Made by a program: the position numbers and the translations under genes. 64,000 nt of DNA from Eledone cirrhosa (taxonomy: Eukaryota), in NCBI GenBank assembly GCA_964016885.1, contig OZ024747.1:682001-746000 (forward strand). The letters are read 5' to 3'. Of the stretch, positions 4,071 through 59,773 are shown in pieces. Numbering within the stretch: the first letter of the stretch is position 1; each line of letters begins with the position of its first letter. The notes below the pieces were generated by a model, which did not search any database, had not been told where the DNA came from, and saw only the letters and a program-made list of their open reading frames with translations.

Positions 4071-7000
4071 ATGAAGACGTTGCATCTCAGAGTTGCAACA
4101 CTTAATGTTGGCACTCTCAGAGGTAGATCTGCTGAAATAACGGAGATGCTGGAGAGAAGGCATGTGGATGTGTGCTGTGTGCAAGAGGTGAGATGGAGAG
4201 GTGCCTCTGTGAGACTAGTTGCAGGCAAACATCTTAGCTATAAGCTTTTCTGGGTAGGTAAGGATGATGGGTTACGGGGAGTAGGCATTTTCCTGGCTGA
4301 GAGATGGATCAATAAGACAATAGAGGTAGTTTGAGTTAGTAATCGAATAATTAAGCTTAGATAAGTTGTAGGCAGGAGACTACTGACAATCATCTCTGCC
4401 TATGCTCCCCAAGCAGGCCTAGGCAAAGAAGAGAAAGACTGCTTTTACGAGCAACTTTTACAAACAACCGCAATGACAGAGGATGGAGACATCGTTATGC
4501 TAGCAGGGGACTTCAATGGTCATGTTGGACAGCTCCAGGATGGTTACACTGGAGTACATAGTGGGCACGGTTACGGCTCAAGAAATGAAGAAAGAGTGAG
4601 ACTTCTTGAATTTTTGTGATGCAAGTACACTGACTATTTGCAACACTAACTTCCAGAAACCTGCCAACCACCTAATAACTTACAAATCAGGCGAGCACAT
4701 AAGCCAGATTGACTTCTTACTAGTTAGGCAGCGGGACAGGCAGATGGTGTCTAATACCAAGGTATACCCTGGGGAAGAATGTACCCCACAGCATAGGTTA
4801 GTCGTTAGTGATATCTCAGTAAGCAAGAGATGGAATGAGACATACAGGAAGGTGTGGAGAAGAAAGGTCTGGAAGCTAAGAGACCTTTCACTAAAATACA
4901 AAAATTTAGGAAAGCCCTTCAAGATGTGTATGATGAAAAAGAAGACGATTTAGAGACGTATGACATAGATAATAACTGAAATTTCTTACGTGACAACTTA
5001 CTACAGGCTACTGATGAAACTTGTGGCTGGAACAGAGATTGACCTGGTGGTGGAACAGCACAGTAGATAGGGCCATTAGAGACAAAAGACTAGCATGGAA
5101 GGCTTGGAAAAAGGGTGGGAGAAGAGAAGGATATACAGCCGCTAAGAAAGAAGCTAGACGTCAGGTGTACTTAGCACGCAGGGAGGCTGAGAGTAGGAGG
5201 TTTGCCAATGTTCTGCGACGGGAAGACCAGAGGCGTGCGGTGTTCCACATTGCAAAGCAGTGTGTCAATGCAAATCAGGATGTTGTTGGGGAAAATGTGT
5301 CCGGAATGATGCCGGTGTACTTAGTGTCACGAATGATCAGAAAAAGGAGGCCTGGAAATGTCATTATGAGAGACTGATGAATGTGGAGAACGAATGGGAG
5401 AGAGAAATTACCCTCAGTAGATCCGACAGAGGGACCAGCTATTGAGATTGACGAATATAGGGTCCAAGAGGCGATTAAGGAAATGAAAAATGGTAAGGCT
5501 GCTGGACCTTCGGGGATAGTTGCTGAGATGCTGAAGGCATCAGGGGACGTAGGCACTAAACTGGTTGCACGCATCATCAATCAGGCTGTATATGGTGGTG
5601 TCATAGCCAAAGACTGGTGCAGCAGTATTCTCATAAATTGCTACAAAGGTAAAGGGGATGCTCTGGAGAGGAGCAATTATAGGGGTATAAAACTGATGGA
5701 TCAGGTTATGAAAGTGGCAGAAAGGATATTAGCACAAATAATTAGAGAAAGGGTCAAACTAGATGAGATGCAGTTTGGTTTTGTGTCTGGGAAGAGTACA
5801 ACAGCTGCCTTCTTGGTGAGACAATTACAAGAGAGGTTCTTAGAGAAAAATAAGCCACTATACTTAGCCTTTGTTGACCTAGAGAAAGCCTTTGATAGGG
5901 TACCCCGATCTGTCATCTGGTGGACCCTAAAGAAACTAGGTGTTGAGGAATGGCTTGTGAGGACAGTGTAAACTTTGTACAGAGGTACTGTCAGTAAAGT
6001 CAGCGTAGGAATGGAGTTTAGTGAGGAATTCCAGATACAAGTAGGAGTGCATCAAAGTTCGGTCCTCAGCTCGCTCTTGTTCCTTATAGTCCTCCAAGCC
6101 ATAACAGAGGAGTTTAAGACTGGCTGTCCATGGGAACTTCTCTATGCTGATGATCTGGTTCTTATAGCAGAATCAGTAGAGGAGCTAGAGAATACATTCT
6201 GGCTATGGAAACAGCAGTTGGAAGCAAGAGGACTGGGAGTAAACCTAGCTAAGACAAAAGTGTTGATGAGTAGAAAAGAGGGCAAAACTCTGATTCCGTC
6301 AGGGAAATGGCCATGTTTGATATGCAGAAAAGGAACTGGCATAAATTCTCTAAAATGCACACAATGCAGATCCTGGGTACACAAGGGATGTAGTGGGATA
6401 GCAGGCAAACTAACAGGTAGGGAGAAATATGTATGCAGTAGATGTACAAGGAAATTAGACAGTAGAAGTTGCATTGGTAGACACATTTTTCAAATGCAGG
6501 CGGGTGCTATAGAAGTGGTGGATAGCTTCCGCTACCTCGGAGATCAGATTAGCATGGGAGGGGGGGTGTTCCGAGGCCATAGTATCTAGAATAAGGACGG
6601 GTTGGAAGAAGTTTAGGGAGCTGCTTCCTCTGCTGACGAAGAAGGGTTTCTCCCTGCGTACGAAAGGCTGGTTATATGATGCCTGTGTGAGGAGTGCGAT
6701 GCTGCATGGTAGTGAGACATGGGCAGCAACTGCAGAGGATATGCGACGGCTGGAGAGAAATGAGGTAAGCATGCTCCGTTGGATGTGCAATGTCAATGTG
6801 TGTGAACGACCCAGCATAAATGTGTTGAGAGAGAAATAGAATGTAGTGTGCGAGAGAGGAGACTGAGGTGGTATGGACATGTGATGCGCATGGAGGATGA
6901 CCGATGAGTGAAGAAGTGCCAGGAAATGCCAGTTGAAGGAAGACGTGGTAGAGGTAGACCACGAAAAACATGGGCGGAGGTGGTGAGAACAGACCTCAGA

Positions 7001-7303: not shown

Positions 7304-10300
7304 CATCATCATCATCATCAACGTTTAACGTCCGTGTTCCACGCTTGCATGGGTTTGGACGGGGGTAGTCCCACTTGAGGCAAGAGTGATTGTCTTGCTC
7401 GCATAGGACTGTCTGGCAGGTTTTCTACAGTTGGATGCCCTTCCTAACACCAACCACATTTACAGTGTGGGTCTGGGAGGTTTTTACCGTGTTGCCTACA
7501 CGGCCACATTACAGCGTGGACTGTGTGTTTTTTTGTCGTGACACCTACACGATCTCATTTGTTTCGGCCTCGATGGCGCGGCACCAACATAACTTTACAT
7601 AGGAGGGGGTGGTGTGGATGGGGTGGGGGTGGGGGTGGTGGGACGGGGTGTATTTTGTTAGAGATGCCTACTGGCTGGAGTAGGTTTTACTATATATTTA
7701 GGTAAGGCGGGTCTTCTCTGTTACTGAGTACCGCCAAAGGTCTCGGTCTAGTGACATTGTCTTGGAGAGGTGTAAGTGTGTGATGTCGGAGTTTATCAGC
7801 TCGTCCCAGGTTTTTCTAGGTCTGCCTATTCCGTGACTACCGTCTATCTTTATTGCCCTGCACTTTGTTATACAGCTATCGACTTTCATGCGCATCACGT
7901 TTCCATACCAACGTAGCCTTCTCTCGAGTAAACAACATCTGATCCCTCTTATCTCTAATTTTTTCCTTAGTTCGTTTTTCCTATGCTTTGCCGTTCACGT
8001 ATATTACTGTTACACATCCAGCGGAGCATGCAAGCTTCGTTCCTCTCTAGTCTGCGTATATCCTCTGCACACAATGCCCAGGTCTCACTGCCATGCAGCA
8101 TTGCTGTTCGTATGCAGGCATCGTACAACCTGCCTTTCATTTTTAGGGAGAACCCTTTAGCAGCTAATAGTGGTATAAGCTCTCTGAACTTTTTCCAACC
8201 AGTTCTGACTCTAGCTACAGTACTTTCAGAGCACCCTCCCCCACTGCTGATTTTATCGCCCAGGTAACGGAAGCTGTCCACTATTTCTATAGAACCTTCT
8301 GCGCAATTGAAAGAGCTAGTATTTTGTGGGCACTTGCTGCTACTTATTGCACCAGAACACCGGCCACATGTAAAATCTATGTTCTTAGTTAGCTTACCTC
8401 TGATCCCACTACATCTTTTATGCACCCATACTTTGCATTTAGGACATAAAATGGAGTTTCTACCTACGCCTTTCCTACACACCGAGCACGACCAGTTTCC
8501 AGAAGGGACCGCCGCCTTGTTTTCTTTCCTACAAACTAGTACTTTGGTCTTAGCCAGGTTAATTTTAAGTCCTTTTGACTCTAGGCCGTGCTTCCATGTT
8601 TGGAATTTCTTCTCTAGCTCGGCCATTGATTCCGCTATGAGTGTCAGGTCGTCTGCGTATAGGAGTTCCCATGGGCAGCCTGTCTTGAACTCCTCTGTTA
8701 TAGCCTGAAGGGCAATAATAAATAGTAGGGGGCTGAGAACAGAGCCCTGATGGACGCCAACTTTTACGCTAAACTCTTCACTATATTCGTTGTTAATTCT
8801 AACCTTGCTGACTGTTTCTTTATACATGGCTTGTATAGCCCTCACAAGCCATTCGTCAACGCCTAGTTTTCTAAGAGCCCACCAGATAATGGAGCGGGGG
8901 ACTCTGTCGAAGGCTTTCTCCAAGTCGACAAAAGCTAAGTAGAGGGGTTTACCTTTAGCTAGGTACTTCTCCTGTAGTTGTCGTACTGTGAAAAGAGCGT
9001 CTGTGGTACTTTTGCCTGACACAAACCCGAACTGCATTTCATCTAGGTCAATTCTCTCTCTGATTAGTTGCGCTATTACTTTTTCCGTGACCTTCATGAC
9101 CTGGTCGATTAATTTAATGCCTCTATAGTTACTCCTATCTAGGGCGTCTCCTTTACCCTTATAACAGTTAACGATGATGCTGCTATGCCAGTCCTTCGGA
9201 ACAACCCCATTCTGTACGACTTGGTTAACTATGCGGGTGACCATGGTGTGTCCCACCGTGCCAGATGCCTTCAGCATCTCAGCAACTATTTCCGAAGGCC
9301 CAGCCGCCTTACCCGTCTTCATATCCTTGATTGCCTTACTTATTATACTCCCCTCGACTAACACTGCTGGTCCCTCTATTGGGTCGATATGGGGGAGACT
9401 GTCTTTCTCCCATTTATTCTCCTCATTTAGTAGCCTTTCATAGTGACACTTCCAAGCTACCTTCTTATCAGCGTCGGTGATGGCAAGTGTGCCATCGTCG
9501 TTTAGTACACACTTCTCCCCGACAATATCACGGTTTTCCTTGACGCATTGCCTAGCAATCCTGAACACCTCACGTTTTTGGTCATCGCGTTGTAGAACAT
9601 GCTTGAACTTTCATTCCTCAGCTTCCCTTCTTGCTAAGTACACTTGTCTCCTAGCTTCCCTCCTGGCCACTTGATAGTCTTCTCTACTTCCCCCATCCCG
9701 CCATACTTTCCAAGCCTGCTTTTTGGCCTTAATTGACCCCTCCACCTTACTGTTCCACCACCATGTTACTCTCCTCCTGCCTACAGGCCTGCTCCAGCCA
9801 CAGACTTCGTCTGTCGCCAACAGCAGGTTTGCTTTCAGAAATTCCCACTCTCCCTCTATATTGTCCGACTCTAAATGTTCTTCCTTACTGTCGAAAGCAT
9901 CAAGTAATATGCTTTGAAATTTATTCCTGGCTGTGGGGTCCTTTAGCTTCCATATTTTTCTCCTGAGGATAGTCCTCTTCTGCTGTCGAGTACGTCTCGT
10001 CCTGACTATGAGGTCGCTAATTATCAGACTATGTTGGGAGGTGCATTCTTCATGGGGGAGGGATTTAGTGTTTACAACAGACACTCTGTCACGTCTTCTG
10101 GTAAGGATATAATCTACCTGGCTTGTGTGTTCCCCGGATCTATAGGTGATCAGGTGATTGTCACGTTTTTTGAAGTTAGTGTTACAGATAGTTAGGTTAT
10201 TTGCATCACAGAATTCCAGGATTCTGGAGCCTTCCTCATTTCTAGTACCAAACCCATAGCCTCCATGGATTTCGTCGTAGCCGTCACAATGTTGTCCAAC

Positions 10301-10730
10301 GTGATAATTTAGGTCGCCTGCAATAATTATATAGTCACTGTCGGATATTTGGGAGGTAGTTAGCATCAGTGTCTCATAGAATCTGTCTTTTATAGTGCCG
10401 GGCAGTCCGGATTGGGGTGCGTACGCAGATATTACTGTCACCGTAGTTCTATTGAGGACAAGTCGTATTTTAATTATTCTGTCGTTCACTCTATTTACGT
10501 CTATTATCTTATCTGCCCACTTTTCTGCTACCATGATTCCTACTCCACCCAGCCCATCGTCGTTTCCCACCCAGAAAAGCTTATAACATCGTTTTTTACC
10601 CTCAATGAACCTAGCAGACCCATCCCTCCACCTGGTCTCTTGAATACAACAAACATCGACCTCCTTACGTTCAAGCATTTCTACAACCTCGTTAGCGCGA
10701 CCCTTTAGGGTACCTACATTTATGGTACCA
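7304..10730 (-). mobile_element. RTE-clade LINE, near full length and young (one nonsense codon at 9611, one 5-bp insertion near 7976), 7-bp TSD GCTCTAT
   Basis: ORFs 9611-10678 (APE), 7967-9568 (RT with YADD and PHD) and 7698-7898. 3'UTR 7321-7697 and (CAT)n tail at 7304-7320. GCTCTAT at 7297-7303 and 10731-10737. Confidence 0.97.
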
Positions 10731-11705
10731 GCTCTATGTATCAGCTATTTGATGGATAATATCAGAGCAATTAAGTTGCTTTTGCTAGATTAGAAATTTA
10801 AACTCAGTTCTCTTTTTCAGCTGTCTGCCACTTAAACTATGAAATTGCTTTAGATTTTAGACTATTGATAAAATAGTAGGCACATTTTAAGAATTCTATT
10901 TAACATTTTTGTGACTATATTTCTATCAGCAATTTACAGCTTTTGTGCTTTAGTTTATCAATGTAATCAAGAATTATGAGAGGTTTTGTGTATTAATTAA
11001 CTTAATAATGGTTTCTGATTTAGGCACAAGGCCAACAGTGCATTACTGGTACTTTATTTTATCAACCCTCTAAAGATGAAAGCAAAGCTAATCTCGAAAT
11101 TTGAACTCAATTAACTAACTTAGTAATAAAAATATTTAATCCCTGAAACCAATATTATCTGTCAAGAAATAACAAGCCCAATGGCTATCTTTTTATGTTT
11201 TTTTTTTCTAGATTGCTTAGTCTTAGTTTTCATTTTGATAAATGGTGTTATTTTCAAGGTTTAAATATCCTTATTTATCACCACAGAACCCCTGTCTTCA
11301 GCCTTGTTTTACCAATGTAAGGACTACAACAGCTCCTCTGATCAACTTTCTCAGTTATATAAATGTTTGTTATATTAAGGTTTACTACAGCTACTTTCTA
11401 CCCCTTAGTCATTGCTATATATAGCAGAAGGTTCATCTCACTCATACTATTTCGAAATGCTAGTAGCTTTGGTGAAATTGGAAGTAAACAGTCAGTAACT
11501 ATTACTAAGAAATATTACTCACAGTACTGATTCTGAGACCATCAATTAGCTGTACTGTGCTCTATCAATCACAATCTCGCATTTCATTGATCTATAAACT
11601 GCTGTTTTATGAGCTGCAAATGAAATGTGATGATATATTGTGTAAGATCATATCAATAGAATAACTTTACTTTTGTAATAGGAAAGTCTTTTGTGTCTTC
11701 CTAAG

Positions 11706-16548: not shown

Positions 16549-18118
16549 GACAGGTTTGCCACACCTGACTGGTTTGTTAGCATTAGATTCAGACAGGCTT
16601 GCCACACCTGACTGGTTTGTTAGCATTAGATTCAGACAGGCTTGCCACACCTGACTGGGGTTTATTAGCATTAGATTCAGACAGGCTTGCCACACCTGAC
16701 TGGGGTTTATTAGCATTAGATTCAGACAGGCTTGCTACACCTGACTGGTTTGTTAGCATTAGATTCAGACAGGCTTGCCACACCTGACTGGTTTGTTAGC
16801 ATTAGATTCAGACAGGCTTGCCACACCTGACTGGTTTGTTAGCATTAGATTCAGACAGGCTTGCCACACCTGACTGGTTTGTTAGCATTAGATTCAGACA
16901 GGCTTGCCACACCTGACTGGTTTGTTAGCATTAGATTCAGACAGGCTTGCCACACCTGACTGGGGTTTATTAGCATTAGATTCAGACAGGCTTGCCACAC
17001 CTGACGGGTTTATTAGCATTAGATTCAGACAGGCTTGCTACACCTGACTGGTTTGTTAGCATTAGATTCAGACAGGCTTGCCACACCTGACTGGTTTGTT
17101 AGCATTAGATTCAGACAGGCTTGCCACACCTGACTGGTTTGTTAGCATTAGATTCAGACAGGCTTGCCACACCTGACTGGTTTGTTAGCATTAGATCCAG
17201 ACAGGCTTGCCACACCTGACTGGGGTTTATTAGCATTAGATTCAGACAGGCTTGCCACACCTGACTGGGGTTTATTAGCATTAGATTCAGACAGGCTTGC
17301 CACACCTGACTGGGGTTTATTAGCATTAGATTCAGACAGGCTTGCCACACCTGACTGGTTTGTTAGCATTAGATTCAGACAGGCTTGCCACACCTGACTG
17401 GGGTTTTTAGCATTAGATTCAGACAGGCTTGCCACACTTGACTGGTTTGTTAGCATTAGATTCGGACAGGCTTGCCACACCTGACTGGGGTTTATTAGCA
17501 TTAGATTCAGACAGGCTTGCCACACCTGACTGGGGTTTGTTAGCATTAGATTCAGACAGGCTTGCCACACCTGACTGGGGTTTGTTAGCATTAGATTCAG
17601 ATAGGCTTGCCACACCTGACTGGGGTTTTTAGCATTAGATTCAGACAGACTTGCCACACCTGACTGGTTTGTTAGCATTAGATTCAGACAGGCTTGCCAC
17701 ACCTGACTGAGGTTTATTAGCATTAGATTCAGACAGGCTTGCCACACCTGACTGGGGTTTGTTAGCATTAGATTCAGACAGGCTTGCCACACCTGACTGG
17801 TGTTTGTTAGCATTTGATTCAGACAGGTTTGCCACACCTGACTGGGGTTTATTAGCATTAGATTCAGACAGGCTTGCCACACCTGACTGGGGTTTGTTAG
17901 CATTAGATTCAGACAGGCTTGCCACACCTGACTGGGGTTTGTTAGCATTAGATTCAGATAGGCTTGCCACACCTGACTGGTTTGTTAGCATTAGATTCAG
18001 ACAGGCTTGCCACACCTGACTGGGGTTTATTAGCATTAGATTCAGACAGGCTTGGCTTGCCACACCTGACTGGTTTGTAAGCATTAGATTCAGACAGGCT
18101 TGCCACACCTGACTGGTC
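16549..18118. repeat. 43/45-bp minisatellite (GGCTTGCCACACCTGACTGG[GG]TTTRTTAGCATTAGATTCAGACA)n, ~36 copies
   Basis: Head-to-tail near-identical units in two interspersed length variants, with no unique spacers. Confidence 0.97.
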
Positions 18119-21294: not shown

Positions 21295-21620
21295 TCCCCG
21301 TCCCCCCACCACAGTAACACCGTCTCCCCACCACGACCACAGTAACACCGTCTCCCCCCACCACCACAGTAACACCGTCTCTCCACCACCACCACAACAG
21401 TAACACCGTCTCCCCACCATCACCACCACCACAGTAACACCGTCTCTCCACCACCACCACACAGTAACACCGTCTCCCCACCACCACAACGGTAACACCG
21501 TCTCTCCACCACCACCACAACAGTAACACCGTCTCCCCACCACCACCACCACCACAACGGTAACACCGTCTCTCCACCACCACCACCACAACAGTAACAC
21601 CGTCTCCCCACCACCACAGT
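21295..21620. repeat. ~27-35-bp minisatellite (CCA)n-CAGTAACACCGTCTCC, ~11 copies
   Basis: Constant GTAACACCGTCTC core separated by variable (CCA)n. Confidence 0.92.
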
Positions 21621-22210: not shown

Positions 22211-22260
22211 TGGTGCCCAAGCATGGCCTCAGCCGGATGGTTGGAACAGGTAAAAGAGTA
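22211..22260 (+). mobile_element. 50-bp 3'-terminal stub of the CR1-group LINE found at 39956-43535
   Basis: GGTGCCCAAGCATGGCCTCAGCCGGATGGTTGGAACAGGTAAAAGAGTA matches the reverse complement of 39956-40004 with 3 mismatches. Confidence 0.9.
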
Positions 22261-22537
22261 TATATGTGGGTGTGTGTGTATGTATTAGGTATATATATAT
22301 ATATGTGTATGTATTAGGTATATATATATGTGTGTGTGTGTATTAGGTGTATATATATGTGTGTTAGGTATATATTATATATATGTGTGTGTATTAGGTA
22401 TATATATATGTGTGTATTAGGTATATATATATGTATGTGTATTAGGTATATATATATGTGTATGTATATGTATATGTGTGTATATATATATATGTATATA
22501 ATATATAAGAACAGAAGATGGTTAAAGGAGTTCCATG

Positions 22538-22608
22538 TATTTTATTATGCGCATTTCAAAAACAAACATCATCATGCAATAATATTTGTGTTTTCATCAG
22601 ATAAAACA
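22538..22608 (-). ncRNA. Minimal type-I hammerhead ribozyme (complete)
   Basis: Minus strand: stem I UGUUUUAU, core CUGAUGA, stem II AAACACAAAUAUUAUU-GCAU-GAUGAUGUUUGUUUUU (one mismatch, G-U pairs), GAA, palindromic AUGCGCAU, A17 (AUA triplet), stem I' AUAAAAUA. Confidence 0.8.
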
Positions 22609-22944
22609 GGTAGATATGATATAAAGGCTAAAAAAACACTTGTGGATAGTGCAGTTTTAAATCAACATATATTGCTTTATCAACATATATTGCTTTATTG
22701 TACTACAATAAAACTCACCTCCTACATTATATATATGTATATATATATATGTGTATGTATATATATATATATGTGTATGTATATATATATATATGTGTAT
22801 GTATATATATATATATGTGTATGTATATATATATATATGTGTATGTATATATATATATATGTGTATGTATATATGTATATGTGTATGTATATATATATAT
22901 GTGTATGTATATATATATATGTGTATGTATATATATATATGTGT

Positions 22945-22980
<36 letters not shown>

Positions 22981-23221
22981 ATGTATGTGTATATATATAT
23001 ATATGTGTATGTATATATATATATATATATATGTGTATATATATATGTGTATGTATATATATATATATATATATGTGTATATATATATGTGTATATATAT
23101 ATGTGTATGTATATATATATATATGTGTGTATATATATATATGTGTGTATATATATATATGTGTATATATATATATGTGTATATATATATATATGTGTAT
23201 ATATATATATATGTGTATATA

Positions 23222-23262
<41 letters not shown>

Positions 23263-23659
23263 ATATATATATGTGTGTCTATATATATATGTGTCTATAT
23301 ATATATGTGTGTATATATATATGTGTATGTATATATATGTATATATATATATATATGTATGTATATATGTATGTATATATATGTATATATATATATATAT
23401 GTATGTATATATGTATGTATATATATGTATATATATATATATATGTATGTATATATGTATGTATATATGTATATATATATATATATGTATGTATATATGT
23501 ATGTATATATGTATGTATATATGTATGTATATATATATATGTATGTATATATATATATGTATATATATATATGTATGTATATATATATATGTATGTATAT
23601 ATGTATGTATATATGTATGTATATATGTATGTATGTATGTATGTATATATATATGTATG

Positions 23660-23699
<40 letters not shown>

Positions 23700-23871
23700 T
23701 GTATGTATATATATATGTATGTATATATATATGTATGTATATATGTATGTATATATGTATGTATATATATATGTATGTATATATGTATGTATATATATGT
23801 ATGTATGTATATATATGTATATATGTATGTATGTATATATGTATATATATATGTATATATGTATATATATG

Positions 23872-23906
<35 letters not shown>

Positions 23907-24007
23907 GTATATATATATGTATATGTATATATATATGTATATATATATGTATATGTATATATATATGTATATATATATGTATATATATATATATATGTAT
24001 ATATATA

Positions 24008-24086
<79 letters not shown>

Positions 24087-24423
24087 ATATATATATGTAT
24101 ATATATATATGTATATATATATATGTATATATGTATATATATATATGTATATATGTATATATATATATATGTATATATATATGTATATATATATGTATAT
24201 ATATATATGTATATATATATATGTATATATATATATGTTATATATATATATGTATATATATATGTATATATATATATGTATATTATATATGTATATATAT
24301 ATATGTATATATATATATGTATATATATATGTATATATATATATGTATATATATATGTATATATATATATGTATATATATATATGTATATATATATGTAT
24401 ATATATATATGTATATATATATG

Positions 24424-24454
<31 letters not shown>

Positions 24455-24603
24455 GTATATATATATGTATATATGTATATATATATGTATATATGTATAT
24501 ATATATGTATATATGTATATATGTATGTATATATGTATATATGTATATATATATGTATATATGTATATATGTATATATGTATATATGTATATATGTATAT
24601 ATG

Positions 24604-24634
<31 letters not shown>

Positions 24635-24695
24635 GTATATATATGTGTATATATGTATATATATATGTATATATATGTGTATATATGTATATATG

Positions 24696-24729
<34 letters not shown>

Positions 24730-24751
24730 TGTATGTATATATGTATATATG

Positions 24752-24784
<33 letters not shown>

Positions 24785-24789
24785 GTATG

Positions 24790-24836
<47 letters not shown>

Positions 24837-24983
24837 GTATATATATATGTGTATATATGTATATATATATGTGTATATATGTATATATATATGTGTATAT
24901 ATGTATATATGTATATATATATATATGTATATATATATGTGTATATATATATATATATGTATATATGTATATGTATATATATG

Positions 24984-25106
<123 letters not shown>

Positions 25107-25141
25107 GTATATAGGTATATATATATATATATGTATATATG

Positions 25142-25266
<125 letters not shown>

Positions 25267-25301
25267 ATATATATGTATATATATGTATATGTATATATAT
25301 G

Positions 25302-25338
<37 letters not shown>

Positions 25339-25355
25339 GTATATGTATATATATG

Positions 25356-25390
<35 letters not shown>

Positions 25391-25407
25391 GTATATGTAT
25401 ATATATG

Positions 25408-25444
<37 letters not shown>

Positions 25445-25607
25445 GTATATATATATGTATATATATGTATATATATGTATATGTATATATGTATATATAT
25501 GTATATGTATATATGTATATGTATATATATGTATATATGTATATATATATGTATATATATATATGTATATATGTATATATATATATGTATATATGTATAT
25601 ATATATG

Positions 25608-25640
<33 letters not shown>

Positions 25641-25654
25641 GTATATATGTATAT

Positions 25655-25686
<32 letters not shown>

Positions 25687-25721
25687 GTATATGTATATAT
25701 ATATGTATATATGTATATATG

Positions 25722-25752
<31 letters not shown>

Positions 25753-25761
25753 GTATATATG

Positions 25762-25792
<31 letters not shown>

Positions 25793-25809
25793 GTATATAT
25801 GTATATATG

Positions 25810-25842
<33 letters not shown>

Positions 25843-25859
25843 GTATATATGTATATATG

Positions 25860-25892
<33 letters not shown>

Positions 25893-25909
25893 GTATATAT
25901 GTATATATG

Positions 25910-25942
<33 letters not shown>

Positions 25943-25959
25943 GTATATATGTATATATG

Positions 25960-25992
<33 letters not shown>

Positions 25993-26111
25993 GTATATAT
26001 GTATATATATATATATATATTGTATATATATATATATATGTATATATGTATTTATATATGTATATATGTATATATATATGTATATATGTATATATATATG
26101 TATATATGTAT

Positions 26112-26191
<80 letters not shown>

Positions 26192-26228
26192 GTATATATA
26201 TATGTATATATATATGTATATATATATG

Positions 26229-26263
<35 letters not shown>

Positions 26264-26284
26264 GTATATATATATGTATATATG

Positions 26285-26322
<38 letters not shown>

Positions 26323-26557
26323 TGTATGTATATATATGTATATATGTGTATATGTGTATATATGTATATGTTATATATATGTATATGTATGTATATGTAT
26401 GTATATGTATATGTATATATATGTATATGTATGTATATGTATATGTATGTATATGTATGTATATGTATATGTATATATATGTATATATATATATATATGT
26501 AAATATATATATATATGGATGTATATATATGTGTATATATGTATATGTATATATATG

Positions 26558-26604
<47 letters not shown>

Positions 26605-26986
26605 GTATATATATATATGTATATATATATATATGTATATATATATATGTATGTATTTATATGTATATATATATATGTATGTATTTATATGTATATATAT
26701 ATATGTATGTATTTATATGTTATATATATATATGTATTTATATGTGTATATATATATATGTATGTATTTATATGTGTATATATATATATGTATGTATTTA
26801 TATGTGTATATATATATATGTATGTATTTATATGTATTTATATATATATGTATGTATTTATATGTATGTATATATATGTATGTATATGTATATATATGTA
26901 TGTATATATATGTACATATATATGTATGTATATATGTATGTATATATATATGTATGTACATATATATGTATGTATATATATATATG

Positions 26987-27139
<153 letters not shown>

Positions 27140-27268
27140 GTATATATGTATATATATATATGTATATATATATATGTATATATATATATGTATATATATA
27201 TATATGTATATATATATATGTGTATATATATATATGTGTATATATATATATATGTGTATATATATATG

Positions 27269-27317
<49 letters not shown>

Positions 27318-27318
27318 G

Positions 27319-27363
<45 letters not shown>

Positions 27364-27572
27364 GTAGGTATATATATATATGTAGGTATATATATGTAGG
27401 TATATATATATGTATGTATATATATATGTAGGTATATATATATGTATATATATGTATATATATATGTAGGTATATATATATGTATATATATGTATATATA
27501 TGTATATGTATATATATGTATATATATATGTATATATATATATATGTATATATATATGTGTATATATATATG

Positions 27573-27603
<31 letters not shown>

Positions 27604-27714
27604 GTATATATATATGTATATATATATATGTATATATATATATGTATATGTATATATATATATGTATATATATATGTATATATATGTATATATATATATA
27701 TGTATATATATATG

Positions 27715-27763
<49 letters not shown>

Positions 27764-27764
27764 G

Positions 27765-27797
<33 letters not shown>

Positions 27798-27798
27798 C

Positions 27799-27831
<33 letters not shown>

Positions 27832-27850
27832 GTATATATGTATATATATG

Positions 27851-27901
<51 letters not shown>

Positions 27902-27902
27902 C

Positions 27903-27951
<49 letters not shown>

Positions 27952-27962
27952 GTATATATATG

Positions 27963-28013
<51 letters not shown>

Positions 28014-28014
28014 C

Positions 28015-28047
<33 letters not shown>

Positions 28048-43970: not shown

Positions 43971-46452
43971 GGGGGAAGTAGAGAAGACTATCAAGTGGCC
44001 AGGAGGGAAGCTAGGAGACAAGTGTACTTCGCAAGAAGGGAAGCAGAGGAAAGAAAGTTCAAGCATGTTCTACAACGTGAGGACCAAAAACGTGAGGTGT
44101 TCAGGATTGCCAGGCAATGTGTCAAGGAAAACCGTGATATTGTCGGGGAGAAGTGTGTACTTAACGATGATGGCATACTTGCCATCACCGACGCTGATAA
44201 GAAGGTAGCTTGGAAGTGTCACTACGAAAGGCTTCTAAATGAGGAGAACAAATGGGAGAAAGACAGTCTCCCCCAGATCGATCCAATAGAGGGACCAGCA
44301 GTGTTAGTTGAAGGTAGTATAATAAGTAAGGCAATCAAAGATATGAAGACGGGTAAGGCGGCTGGGCCTTCGGAAATAGTTGCTGAGATGCTGAAGGCAT
44401 CTGGTTCGGTGGGACACACCATGGTCACCCGGATAGTTAACCAAGTCGTACAGAATGGGGTTGTTCCGAAGGAATGGCGTAGCAGCATCATCGTTAACTG
44501 CTATAAGGGAAAAGGAGATGCCCTAGATAGGAGTAACTATAGAGGCATTAAATTAATCGACCAGGTCATGAAGGTCACGGAAAAAGTAATAGCGCAACTA
44601 ATCAGAGAGAGAATTGATCTAGATGAAATGCAGTTCGGGTTTGTGTCAGGCAAAAGTACCACAGACGCTCTTTTCATTGTACGACAACTACAGGAGAAGT
44701 ACCTAGCTAAAAGTAAACCCCTATACTTAGCTTTTGTCGACTTGGAGAAAGCCTTCGACAGAGTCCCCCGTTCCATTATCTGGTGGTCTCTTAGAAAACT
44801 AGGTGTTGACGAATGGCTTGTGAGAGCTATACAAGCCATGTATAAAGAAACAGTCAGTAAGGTTAGAATTAACAACGAATATAGTGAAGAGTTTAGCGTA
44901 AAAGTTGGTGTCCATCAGGGCTCTGTACTTAGCCCCCTACTATTTATTATTGCCCTTCAGGCTATAACAGAGGAGTTCAAGGCCGGCTGCCCATGGGAAC
45001 TCCTATACGCAGATGATCTAACGCTCATAGCTGAATCAATGACCGAACTAGAGAAGAAATTCCAAACGTGGAAGCACGGCCTAGAATCAAAAGGCCTTAA
45101 AATTAACCTGGCTAAGACTAAAGTTCTAGTTTGTAGGAAAGAAAATAAGGCGGCGGTCCCATCGGGGAAATGGCCATGCTCAGTGTGTAGGAAAGGCGTA
45201 GGTAGAAACTCCATTTTATGTCCCAAATGCAAAGTATGGGTGCATAAAAGATGTAGTGGGATCACAGGTAAGCTAACTAAGAACATAGATTTTACATGTG
45301 GCCGGTGCTCTGGTGCAATAAGTAGCAGCAAGTGCCCACAAAATACTAGCTCCTTCAACTGCGCAGAGGGTTCTATAGAAATAGTGGACAGCTTCCGTTA
45401 TCTGGGTGACAAAATCAGCAGTGGGGGAGGGTGCTCTGAAAGTACAGTAGCTAGAGTCAGAACTGAATGGAAAAAGTTCAGAGAGCTTATACCACTATTA
45501 GCCGCTAGAGGGTTCTCCCTAAAAATGAAAGGCAGGTTATACGATGCCTGCATACGAACAGCAATGCTGCATGGCAGTGAGACCTGGGCATTGTGTGCAG
45601 AGGATATACGCAGACTAGAGAGGAACGAAGCTTGCATGCTCCGCTGGATGTGCAATAGTAATATACGTGAACGGCAAAGCATAAACGAACTAAGGAAAAA
45701 ATTAGAAATAAGAGGGATCAGATGTTGTTTACTCGAGAGAAGGCTACGTTGGTACGGTCACGTGATGCGCATGAAAGACGACAGCTGTATAACAAAGTGC
45801 AGGGCAATAAAGATAGACGGTAGCCACGGAGTAGGCAGACCCAGAAAAACATGGGACGAGCTGATAAATTCCGACCTCACACGCTTACACCTCTCCAAGA
45901 CAATGTCACTGGACCGAGACCTTTGGCGGTACTCAGTAATAGAGAAGACCCGCCTTACCTAAATACAAAGTAAAAACCTACTACAGTCAGTAGGCACCTC
46001 TATCAAAACACACCCCGTCCCTCCACACCGCCCCTTTCAATGTAAAGTTATGTTGGTCCCACAACATCCAGGCCGAAACAAATGAGATCGTGTAGGTGTC
46101 ACGACAAAAAACACACAGTCCACGCTGTAAATGTGGCCATGTAGGCAACACGGTAAAAACCTCCCAGCCCCACACTGTAAATGTGGTTGGTGTTAGGAAG
46201 GGCATCCAGCTGTAGAAAACCCGCCAGACAGTCCACGCTGTAATGTGGCCGTGTAGGCAACACGGTAAAAACCTCCCAGCCCCACACTGTAAATGTGGTT
46301 GGTGTTAGGAAGGGCATCCAACTGTAGAAAACCCGCCAGACAGTCCTATGCGAGCAAGACAACCACTCTTGCCTCAAGTGGGAAAACCCCCGTCCAAACC
46401 CATGCAAGCGTGGAACACGGACGCTAAACCTGATGATGATGATGATGATGAT
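43971..46452 (+). mobile_element. 5'-truncated RTE LINE, same subfamily as 7304-10730, open RT/PHD frame to 45962, (GAT)n tail
   Basis: Uninterrupted GGSREDYQ...YADD...KTRLT*. The 3'UTR carries a ~113-bp tandem duplication. Tail at 46431-46452. Confidence 0.97.
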
Positions 46453-47267: not shown

Positions 47268-49044
47268 TCATCATCATCATCATCATCATCACCGTTTTAC
47301 GTCCGTTCTTCCACGCTAGCATGGGTTAGACGGGTTGTCCTGTTGTGGGCAGTGTCTGGTCGGCTGACCATGCCTTGCTCATACAGGAACTGATCTGGCT
47401 TGATTTCTACAGCTGGATGCCCTTCCTAACACCAACCTCATTTACAGTGAATGCTGGGTGCTTTTTCGTGGCGCCTACACGTCCACTTTACAGTGTGGGC
47501 TGGGTGCTTTTTTGCCGTGGCACCTCCACGGCCACCTTGCGGTGAGGGGGGGGGGGGCATATTGTTTATATGCTTCAGCATGTACCCATGGGAGGTCGGG
47601 TACCCTGTATTACTGCGTGACGCCAGAAGTCACGGTCGTGTGTCATTGACTTTGAGAGGTGTAGTTGGGTAAGGTCGGCTTTTATCACCTCATCCCAAGT
47701 CATCTTGGGTCTCCCCACTCCGCGGTTTCCATCAACTTCTAGTGCTCTGCACCTTTTTATGCAGCTGTCATCCTTCATACGCATCACATGTCCATACCAG
47801 CGTAACCGCCTCTCCTGCACGCAGCATTTGATTCCTCTTATGCTCAGTCTCTCTCTCAATTCCTTTATGCTTTGTCGTTCACGTATATTACTGTTACACA
47901 TCCATCGGAGCATGCAGGCTTCGTTTCTCTCTAATCTACGTAAGTCTTCCACCTTCAGCGCCCAGGTCTCACTACCATGCAACATCGCTGTTCGGATACA
48001 CGCATCATACAGTCTGCCTTTCATTCTGAGGGAGAAGCCTTTTGCAGCTAGCAGTGGTAGTAGTTCCCTAAACTTCTTCCATCCCGTTCTTACCCTAGTT
48101 ATTGTACTTTCTGAGCACCCACCTCCGTTGCTAATTCGGTCACCTAGGTAGCAGAAGCTGTCTACTGTTTCTACAGGGCCCTCCCAGAGATTGGTGGTAC
48201 TTGTTTCCTGTGGCTGTTTGCTTGCTGTTTCAGCACAGCTGCTGCATGTGAATCCTACATTCTTAATTAAGCTTCCTGAGATCCCGCTACATCTCTTGTG
48301 TACCCATTGTTTGCATTTGGGGCAGAGAATGGAGTTCCTACCTACACCTTTCCTACATACTGAGCAAGGCCATTTCCCTGAGGGGATCTGGGTTCTGTTT
48401 TCTCGTCTACTTACAAGGACCTTAGTCTTTGTCATGTTGACTTTGAGGCCCTTTCTCTCTAGTCCCTGCTTCCAGGTTTGGAATTTATTCTCTAGTTCTA
48501 CCATAGATTCAGCTATGAGTGCGAGGTCATCAGCATACAGGAGTTCCCATGGGCATCCGGTCTTAAACTCCTCCGTTATTGCCTGCAGGACTATGATGAA
48601 CAGGAGAGGGCTAAGAACAGAGCCCTGGTGGACCCCAACCTGTACGCTAAATTCCTCGCTATACTCATTGCCAATCCTAACTTTGCTGACTGCTCCCCTA
48701 TACATGGCTTGTACCGCTTTCACAAGCCATTCATCTACTCCTAGTTTTCTAAGAGCCCACCAGATTACTGCACGTGGAACTCTGTCAAAGGCTTTCTCAA
48801 GGTCGACAAATGCCAAGTAGAGTGGCTTACTTTTAGCTAGGTACTTTTCCTGTAATTGCCTCACAAGGAAGAGGGCATCAGTGGTGCCTTTCCCTGGTAC
48901 AAACCCAAATTGCATCTCGTCTATATTCACCCGGTCCCTAATCAGCTGTGCTATAACTCTTTCTGTTACTTTCATGACCTGGTCCATCAACTTTATACCT
49001 CTATAGTTTCCTCTATCTAGTGCATCGCCTTTACCTTTGTAGCA
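47268..49044 (-). mobile_element. 5'-truncated RTE LINE of a second subfamily, open RT/PHD frame to 47575, (CAT)n tail
   Basis: [16 protein letters not shown]...YADD...CSVC..CPKC..H..C..CSSC...PPMGTC*. Tail at 47268-47291. Confidence 0.97.
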
Positions 49045-49695
49045 TATGTATATATATATGTACATATGTATATATATATGTGTATATATATATATGTACA
49101 TATGTATATATATATGTGTATATATATATATGTATATATATATATCGAATTTTGTCAGTGAAAAGTGAAAGTTTTATGAAATTATTTGTAATGTATATAT
49201 ATAATATAATATAATATAATATAATATAAACGAGTTTTCCTTGGAAAATTGAAAGTGTTATGAATGTATTTGTAAAATATTTTTTCATTAGTTGTTCTTA
49301 GATAAATGTGGAGTCTTTTTATGGGTGAAAAGTTAGAATTTTATGATTTTCTTTTCTCATAGAAATAATACAGGAATGTATTAGATTATTCCATGACAAA
49401 ATATATATTTGGCTGATAACATTAAAATAAGTTGATACATTATTGAGAAAGTTATAATTTTGCAGAAAAATAACTATCTGTGTTCTATCATTCTCTTTTA
49501 TTTTTATAGAAAAGAAATGTTACATTTTTATATCAGCATCCTAAAATTTATGGTAAATCTTTAGAGAAACACTCGTCACGGCTGTAAAATGGGTTTTCTG
49601 TTCTTTTGTTACGTGTTTTCAACGATTCTGACCTCCAAACCTGTCGGAAGAGAGTTTTATGTGGTAGATATAGAGAGGATGAGATTTTGGTGGCA

Positions 49696-54138: not shown

Positions 54139-54329
54139 ATAGTTATGTAATAAACAACATAAGATAATTATTTCATTTACCAGTGGTTTCTTGAAAGCAA
54201 ACGAAATTTGCTTTCATTCATCAGAATGAAAAAATCCTGGTGTCTGATGAATGAAATCAAATTTCGTTTGCTTTCAAGAAACCACTGGTAAATGAAATAA
54301 TTATCTTATGTTGTTTATTGCATAACTAT
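54139..54329. repeat. Long inverted repeat (87-bp arms, 2 mismatches, 17-nt spacer) containing hammerhead motifs
   Basis: 54139-54225 is the reverse complement of 54243-54329. Confidence 0.95.
54171..54231 (-). ncRNA. Type-I hammerhead ribozyme (near complete)
   Basis: Minus strand: UUUCAUU, CUGAUGA, A[UGAAAGCAAA-UUUCG-UUUGCUUUCA]A, GAA-ACC-ACU-GGU-A, AAUGAAA. This gives a 7-bp stem I, a 10-bp stem II with an A-A closing mismatch, and a GUA triplet. Confidence 0.72.
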
Positions 54330-59210: not shown

Positions 59211-59304
59211 CCCTCTTCCTGCTATATTAAGCATTAACCTAATATATTCCTTCCATATACTGTACCGATTGTGTTGTTATTTCTGTTTACCTTTTACACA
59301 CACA

Positions 59305-59773
<469 letters not shown>

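Follow-up and report, generated by a model that had tools for sequence, protein, structure and literature searches.

Hammerhead ribozymes with a palindromic stem III are an established component of Penelope-like retroelements (PLEs), elements that spread as lone truncated copies and use (TA)n targets. Most metazoan PLE hammerheads are lone motifs in truncated copies; a single motif did not cleave, and dimers cleaved at a low level (Cervera and de la Pena 2014, PMC4209133). A review agrees on single-motif versus dimer cleavage and cites Lunse et al. for the cleavage of dimers (PMC6765202). Elements of the Hydra clade insert into (TA)n, carry hammerheads universally, and occur as inverted, 5'-truncated copies with a 30-40 bp tail at either end; their protein is recognized by RWK, DKT and a CxCX5C linker and has no CCHH motif (Craig et al. 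2021, PMC8557442). The (TA)n target is common to the Hydra clade and Naiad, and a bias toward microsatellites is also found in Neptune. The protein of PAc, a Poseidon element of Anolis, cuts AT-rich DNA on both strands and extends each of them, and two internal reverse-transcription start sites bound the genomic tail of the element (Frangieh et al. 2024, PMC11167929). In the same report, cleavage by the PAc hammerhead required the protein, the hammerhead was dispensable for insertion in vitro, and RNA-seq yielded no ends at the PAc cut site. Animal non-LTR retrozymes (bioRxiv 10.64898/2026.07.22.740005) are small, non-coding, high-copy, PLE-related sequences with a type I hammerhead, and are defined by head-to-tail units, each with its own hammerhead.

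The window, by which we mean the whole stretch of 64,000 nucleotides analysed, contains one hammerhead of this kind, on the minus strand of a short island between TA-rich microsatellites. Like the PLE hammerheads of PMC4209133, it has type I topology, an intact core, a long helix II and a small palindromic helix III that depends on a dimer. Unlike those described there, its stem I has 8 bp rather than 4-5 and its stem II 15 pairs rather than 7-8, it lacks the extra nucleotide after A9, its A10.1-U11.1 pair replaces the usual G-C, and an AAUAAA hexamer overlaps its cut site. With the Hydra clade (PMC8557442) the locus shares the (TA)n target, a hammerhead shortly before the 3' end with a near-palindromic stem III of 3-4 bp, and a truncated and inverted layout with a tail, provided that the orientation and identity we ascribe to the tail at 22689-22727 are correct. 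Its hammerhead matches neither Hydra-1_Obim nor any row of File S2 in the available part of that paper; the published Hydra-1_oBim motif, as in the island, closes stem II with an A-U pair. Two reverse-transcription start sites downstream of the hammerhead, as in PAc, would explain the two ends of the island, although PAc is a Poseidon element, outside the presumed clade of the island, and its reading frame starts inside the hammerhead (PMC11167929). In contrast to the head-to-tail retrozymes, the window holds a single motif in a composite island and no tandem hammerhead unit.

A type I hammerhead motif with a palindromic stem III

The minus strand from 22608 to 22538 reads as a complete type I hammerhead of 71 nt (Table 1), and all of the parts listed in the initial annotation, the 8-bp stem I, the core, the G-U-rich stem II of ~15 bp, the palindromic stem III and the cut site, are present in the sequence. 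The type I core consensus (C3 U4 G5 A6 N7 G8 A9 / G12 A13 A14 A15.1 / U16.1 H17) is matched in full, with A22546 as H17 and the predicted cut between 22546 and 22545. The first pair of stem II is A10.1-U11.1 (A22593-U22558), not G-C, and no variant at a frequency of at least 3% was seen there in the public run X1. A G10.1-C11.1 pair is typical of type I hammerheads but is not universal.

Table 1 Features of the island and its surroundings (positions in the window)
Feature	Position	Strand	Basis or remark
Type I hammerhead	22538..22608	-	Sequence, descriptor and shuffles, folding
Stem I	22608-22601 pairs with 22545-22538	-	8 bp, one G-U
Core C3..A9, CUGAUGA	22600-22594	-	Intact
Core G12-A13-A14-A15.1, GAAA	22557-22554	-	
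Stem II	22593-22558	-	3 bp, C x U mismatch, 12 bp (four G-U); 15 pairs
Loop II	22577-22574	-	4 nt
Stem III, perfect 8-nt palindrome AUGCGCAU	22554-22547	-	A15.1 to U16.1; predicted helix between two RNAs only
AAUAAA hexamer, first A is H17, other five bases in 3' strand of stem I	22541..22546	-	Sequence
Ribozyme part: 5'-truncated 3' end of a repeated element (putative PLE 3' UTR or pseudo-LTR) ending in (TA)n	22508..22670	-	X1 depth; layout likeness to L142 family
Trailer, predicted cut to short end of the element at (TA)n	22508..22545	-	38 nt; X1 loose ends before 22515 TA-rich
Perfect 18-bp tandem duplication over the junction of the parts	22661..22696	+	
39-bp piece with fixed end at (TA)n, putative tail (long end) of that element in inverted orientation	22689..22727	+	X1 depth and loose ends
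Left flank, ~250-bp TA/GT-rich microsatellite	22258..22506	.	
Right flank, TA-rich microsatellite array, ~17.2 kb	22728..39956	.	
Broken LINE, AP endonuclease and reverse transcriptase	39957..43535	-	Exo_endo_phos_2 E 8e-13; RVT_1 E 2e-12
41-bp fragment of the 3' tail of the same LINE	22212..22252	+	38/41 identical to reverse complement of 40004-39964

In folding calculations, stems I and II form around the core with helix I open-ended, and helix III appears only as an intermolecular 8-bp duplex. The pairing probability of stem III in the monomer is 0.0, and the palindrome duplex is predicted at -10.5 kcal/mol. The strand-swapped active dimer is predicted at -32.7 kcal/mol, compared to -33.7 kcal/mol for the dimer minimum and -21.2 kcal/mol for two monomers. 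A monomer that forms no helix III and an active dimer within reach agree with the cleavage behavior reported in PMC4209133. In monomer folding, the probability of stem I is ~0.65 in the minimal motif and only 0.14-0.37 with more flank, because GUUUU/AAAAC closes a competing hairpin over the core; the monomer folding z-score of -1.5 is weak. The initial annotation had proposed that the motif could cleave itself as a dimer. This is plausible by folding and has precedent in the ribozyme class, but the published dimer cleavage is low; for the lone copy, self-cleavage at 22546/22545 is a prediction of the model.

A descriptor of the motif with a stem I of at least 6 bp found no match in 20,000 dinucleotide shuffles of the island or in non-repeat window sequence (41 kb) shuffled 200 times. 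When 24 Mb of simulated sequence was searched on both strands, four matches with a stem I of at least 6 bp were obtained and none with at least 8 bp. Within the window, the island motif is the sole match with a stem I of at least 6 bp; another descriptor match, at 54244, has a stem I of 4 bp and lacks the palindrome. In run X1, substitutions at a frequency of at least 3% occur at 11 positions of the island, three of them inside the 71-nt motif and none in the core or the palindrome. All three keep the fold: G-U becomes A-U at 22607, A-U becomes G-U at 22583, and 22575 lies in loop II; each change is one-sided and no compensatory pair was seen, so that the three lend the fold weak support. A search of Rfam gave no hammerhead at gathering level and none among the 37 matches at E<=10. 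The C/D snoRNA-like and miRNA matches from Rfam were rejected, as they fell far below their own thresholds. The lack of a hammerhead match in Rfam, the weak z-score and the A-U pair at 10.1/11.1 could be taken to mean that the motif is a chance arrangement in AT-rich DNA and no ribozyme. We give this next to no credence, since neither the shuffles of the island nor, at a stem I of at least 8 bp, the simulated sequence produced a match, the variants within the family preserve the fold, and the published Hydra-1_oBim motif has the same A-U closure. A chance origin of the motif is excluded.

The predicted cut falls inside the AAUAAA hexamer, and another minus-strand AATAAA, at 22699-22694, lies upstream of the ribozyme. 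The hexamer recurs in the same register in the metagenomic L142 family described below, which was selected by pattern, so that this recurrence is not independent. An AUUAAA in this register is found in Hydra-1_aMil in the available part of File S2 of PMC8557442, by eye in only one of the 26 Hydra rows, which come from AT-rich genomes. It is conceivable, though we think it improbable, that the hammerhead and the poly(A) signal of the element act together as a switch in which folding or cleavage removes AAUAAA. A survey of literature titles and abstract openings found none describing a switch between poly(A) signal and hammerhead.

A repeated sequence of two parts beside a TA array

The island falls into two parts that meet at a perfect 18-bp duplication, and X1 depth has a trough at the joint (Table 1). 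The hammerhead with its palindromic helix III sits near the 3' end of the larger part, 38 nt from predicted cut to (TA)n, and the sequence of the island upstream of the core amounts to 70 nt. TA repeats on both flanks and in the loose ends of X1 contigs indicate insertion in (TA)n. The 39-bp piece contains a 9-bp inverted repeat at 22694-22712, and similarity between the two ends of the island itself was not significant (3,234 of 5,000 shuffles). The island is not hidden within the 17-kb TA array, as first described, but adjoins the left edge of the array, between it and the ~250-bp TA/GT repeat. The array itself includes a gap of 200 N at 32051-32250 followed by a non-TA stretch of ~50 bp (to 32302), and its true length and contiguity are uncertain.

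We compared the public runs X1, X4, X6 and X18, the last sampled at ~1%, with the island segment 22495-22740 (246 bases). Run X1 yielded 2,836 contigs on the island, 944 of them at 99% identity or more, 1,002 at 95-99%, 740 at 90-95% and 150 below 90%. Summed depth, which is no copy number, peaked at ~2.0 million on the ribozyme (22540-22548), fell to 0.011 million at 22675-22683 and rose again to ~0.73 million at 22711-22719; the eight long pieces listed for X1 had depths of 10-35. The family of the island is thus a dispersed high-copy repeat, and an estimate of thousands of copies would be an extrapolation from X1 depth, which does not count copies. The description of the island as unique applies to the window, where it is single-copy, and does not hold in view of the X1 contigs. 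Run X4 contributed one contig and X6 two, two of these three at a depth of ~3.4 and one with a 38-bp match containing 7 differences at depth 56, and the ~1% of X18 covered gave none; these contigs are not taken as a sign of a wide host range. None of the runs listed as containing the island is recorded as RNA, which is evidence in neither direction.

The loose ends of X1 contigs outline the two parts. Other copies diverge behind 22670 (12 contigs, agreement 0.59), 28 contigs have other sequence before 22689, and 13 contigs enter (TA)n behind 22727. Each part thus ends at a fixed point beside (TA)n, and the parts meet at a composite junction. Three contigs lead from 22655-22670 through unknown letters to 22694-22707; four join both parts at junctions differing from that of the window. 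Another contig returns from 22736 to 22529 across 15 letters in a tandem-like manner.

Facing 3' tails of one LINE family, a 41-bp stump and the end of a broken 3.5-kb copy, flank the TA tract on its two sides. The 41-bp tail at 22212-22252 indicates that several elements have landed in the tract. Elsewhere in the window there are four RTE-like LINE copies with similar proteins, at 5381-6589 (+), 7967-10744 (-), 43971-45962 (+) and 47575-49173 (-), two of which start at TA tracts; the copy scanned with Pfam, at 7970-9610, showed a reverse transcriptase and a PHD-like finger. A 112-bp direct duplication (97% alike) at 46115-46346 directly follows the copy at 43971-45962. Minisatellites (periods of 19, 43-45 and ~31) and a 119-copy (CACG)n tract occupy 1-1707, 16549-18116, 21306-21617 and 59297-59773.

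The initial annotation suggested that the ribozyme would cut antisense transcripts that leave the TA array, such as read-through of the LINE at 39956. The locus lends this no support: the LINE is broken, its frame being interrupted by stops at 42700 and 41148 and shifting between 41776 and 41640, and lies 17.2 kb off across an N gap, an AATAAA precedes the ribozyme on the same strand, and a partner RNA would be needed. The broader idea of a locus-specific ribozyme kept to cut transcripts leaving the array can point to the intact core and to the shared strand of LINE and ribozyme. It is nevertheless very improbable in our view, given that the sequence is a high-copy repeat, that the LINE is broken and 17 kb away across an N gap, and that the monomer forms no stem III and, with flanks, forms stem I with a probability of 0.14-0.37. 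The young age of the family accounts for the intact core, and no observation calls for a host function of the ribozyme. Most likely the ribozyme lies on the sense strand of the mobile element itself, and the lone promoterless copy is most likely without effect for the host.

A metagenomic family with the same hammerhead design

The pattern used to scan metagenomes was anchored on stem I and core letters of the island, so that any family recovered shares these letters by selection. The scan gave at least 119 loci, most of them chance matches; among the matches listed, 47 loci with 48 copies share the hammerhead design of the island and constitute a single family. In the 38 distinct rows among the matches listed, 94.9% of the cells pair and four pairs change on both sides; the covariation score lies above that of all 500 shuffles, and the number of two-sided pairs was reached in 85 of the 500. 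One of its loci, L142, has an open reading frame of 720 aa whose end lies 164 nt before the core. When the L142 protein was searched with tblastn, 26 loci were obtained, all within the family: 24 of the 45 loci that the first pattern had given, and L202 and L205, which the second had added. The motifs of the L142 protein, RWK, DKT, CxCX5C, CxxC and CxH, correspond, by eye, to the Hydra diagnostics of Craig et al. Pfam did not recognize the protein, so its clade assignment rests on motifs read by eye, which suggest that the L142 family is a Hydra-clade PLE. As a resource, L142 4212-6374 (-) holds an apparently intact reading frame of putative Hydra-clade type together with a hammerhead, with 46 related loci among L098-L216.

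Copies of the L142 family end either ~45 nt past the cut site (short end) or ~60 nt further (long end). Among the matches listed, 12 of the 48 copies have an inverted piece upstream, which is of the opposite end type in 10 of the 12 and unassignable in 2; the remaining 36 show no such piece in the DNA at hand, which for many consists of 300 bases of flank only. In two loci, L147 and L203, a hammerhead copy with a short end stands beside an inverted piece consisting of tail only, the layout seen in the window. Short and long ends in inverted pairs make this family a clear data set for a model with two start sites.

Outside stem I and the core, no similarity links the two families: nhmmer models built from the L142 family did not find the island (E 1.1), and the 39-bp piece of the window gave no nhmmer match to 17 metagenome tails, with 302 of 500 shuffles scoring as high. 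One X1 loose end has a 9-nt match to a tail motif of the L142 family, with a chance of ~0.02-0.06 before multiple testing. A tblastn search of the window with the L142 protein found nothing, and the window contains no PLE reading frame. A loose-pattern scan of viral sequences gave 97 loci but no family with both stem II and the palindrome, and family-specific scans gave no locus in prokaryote genomes and two in viral sequences, with other flanks. These two viral contigs, L217 1352-1381 (-) and L218 3001-3030 (+), have a hammerhead-like core, the 8-nt palindrome of the window, different flanks and a short stem II. Locus L186 has two opposite-strand pattern matches with a near-identical core and different flanks, is inverted-repeat-like and is probably no hammerhead.

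Proposed origin of the island

We consider it likely that the whole island stems from a single insertion, heavily truncated, of a PLE that targets TA repeats and probably belongs to the Hydra clade. Of the parts of this reading, the PLE identity of the island is very likely by analogy with the L142 family and the published elements, and membership of its family in the Hydra clade is favored less strongly, as somewhat more probable than other placements. Since no reading frame is linked to the island's own family and the search for tail homology was negative, the clade is something we infer. It counts against the PLE reading that the analogous family was found by an island-derived pattern, so that agreement in stem I and core is not independent evidence.

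The mechanism that we propose draws on the L142 family and on the published biochemistry. Within a (TA)n tract, the GIY-YIG nuclease of the element would cleave the two strands, and each would prime reverse transcription at one of two internal start sites located downstream of the hammerhead. One strand would start at the short site (22508) and copy 163 nt including the ribozyme, while the other would start at the long site (22727) and copy only the last ~39 nt of the tail. Both cDNAs would then be joined head to head at 22670/22689, with 18 bp over the joint duplicated. Two-site priming as published for PLEs fits the layout of the island. The ribozyme would be a passenger of the pseudo-LTR of the element, and in the parent element its folding, by way of the palindrome, would require dimerization or the protein of the element. 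If hammerhead and poly(A) signal did form a switch, the RNA would run on to both reverse-transcription start sites that insertion needs.

Two other origins account for some of the same observations. The island could be an internally deleted copy of a non-autonomous, retrozyme-like PLE derivative of fixed length (~300-400 bp) with constant ends at 22727 and 22508: both ends are sharp and adjoin (TA)n, the three X1 contigs with unknown letters between the parts are what a fixed-length element with an internal deletion would produce as well, the contig that returns from 22736 to 22529 looks tandem, and animal retrozymes are non-autonomous PLE derivatives that are often monomers (bioRxiv 10.64898/2026.07.22.740005). 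We regard this as unlikely, because the window has no tandem unit, the agreement of loose ends behind 22670 is low, and the autonomous L142 family arrives at a two-ended layout by inversion, with variable junctions. Still less probable, to our mind, is the back-to-back insertion of two unrelated TA-targeting elements, of which only 22508-22670 would be a PLE end. The depth trough between the parts, their different continuations in X1, the failure to find tail homology and the tendency of the array to collect several different elements all suit such an event, but the parts have no TA spacer between them, and in X1 four contigs join them at junctions different from that of the window.

A single truncated PLE insertion thus remains our preferred reading. 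With its long stems, the motif offers a convenient construct for comparing dimer with protein-assisted cleavage and for studying the overlap with the poly(A) signal. In a literature search on octopus Penelope elements with a hammerhead, the work of Craig et al. was the sole relevant one found, and five motifs of the island family were absent from the available part of its supplement (PMC8557442). Being absent from this one supplement, the family may represent an uncatalogued, abundant PLE family in the host animal, and the island would preserve, in compact form, a natural trace of priming at two sites combined with inversion.
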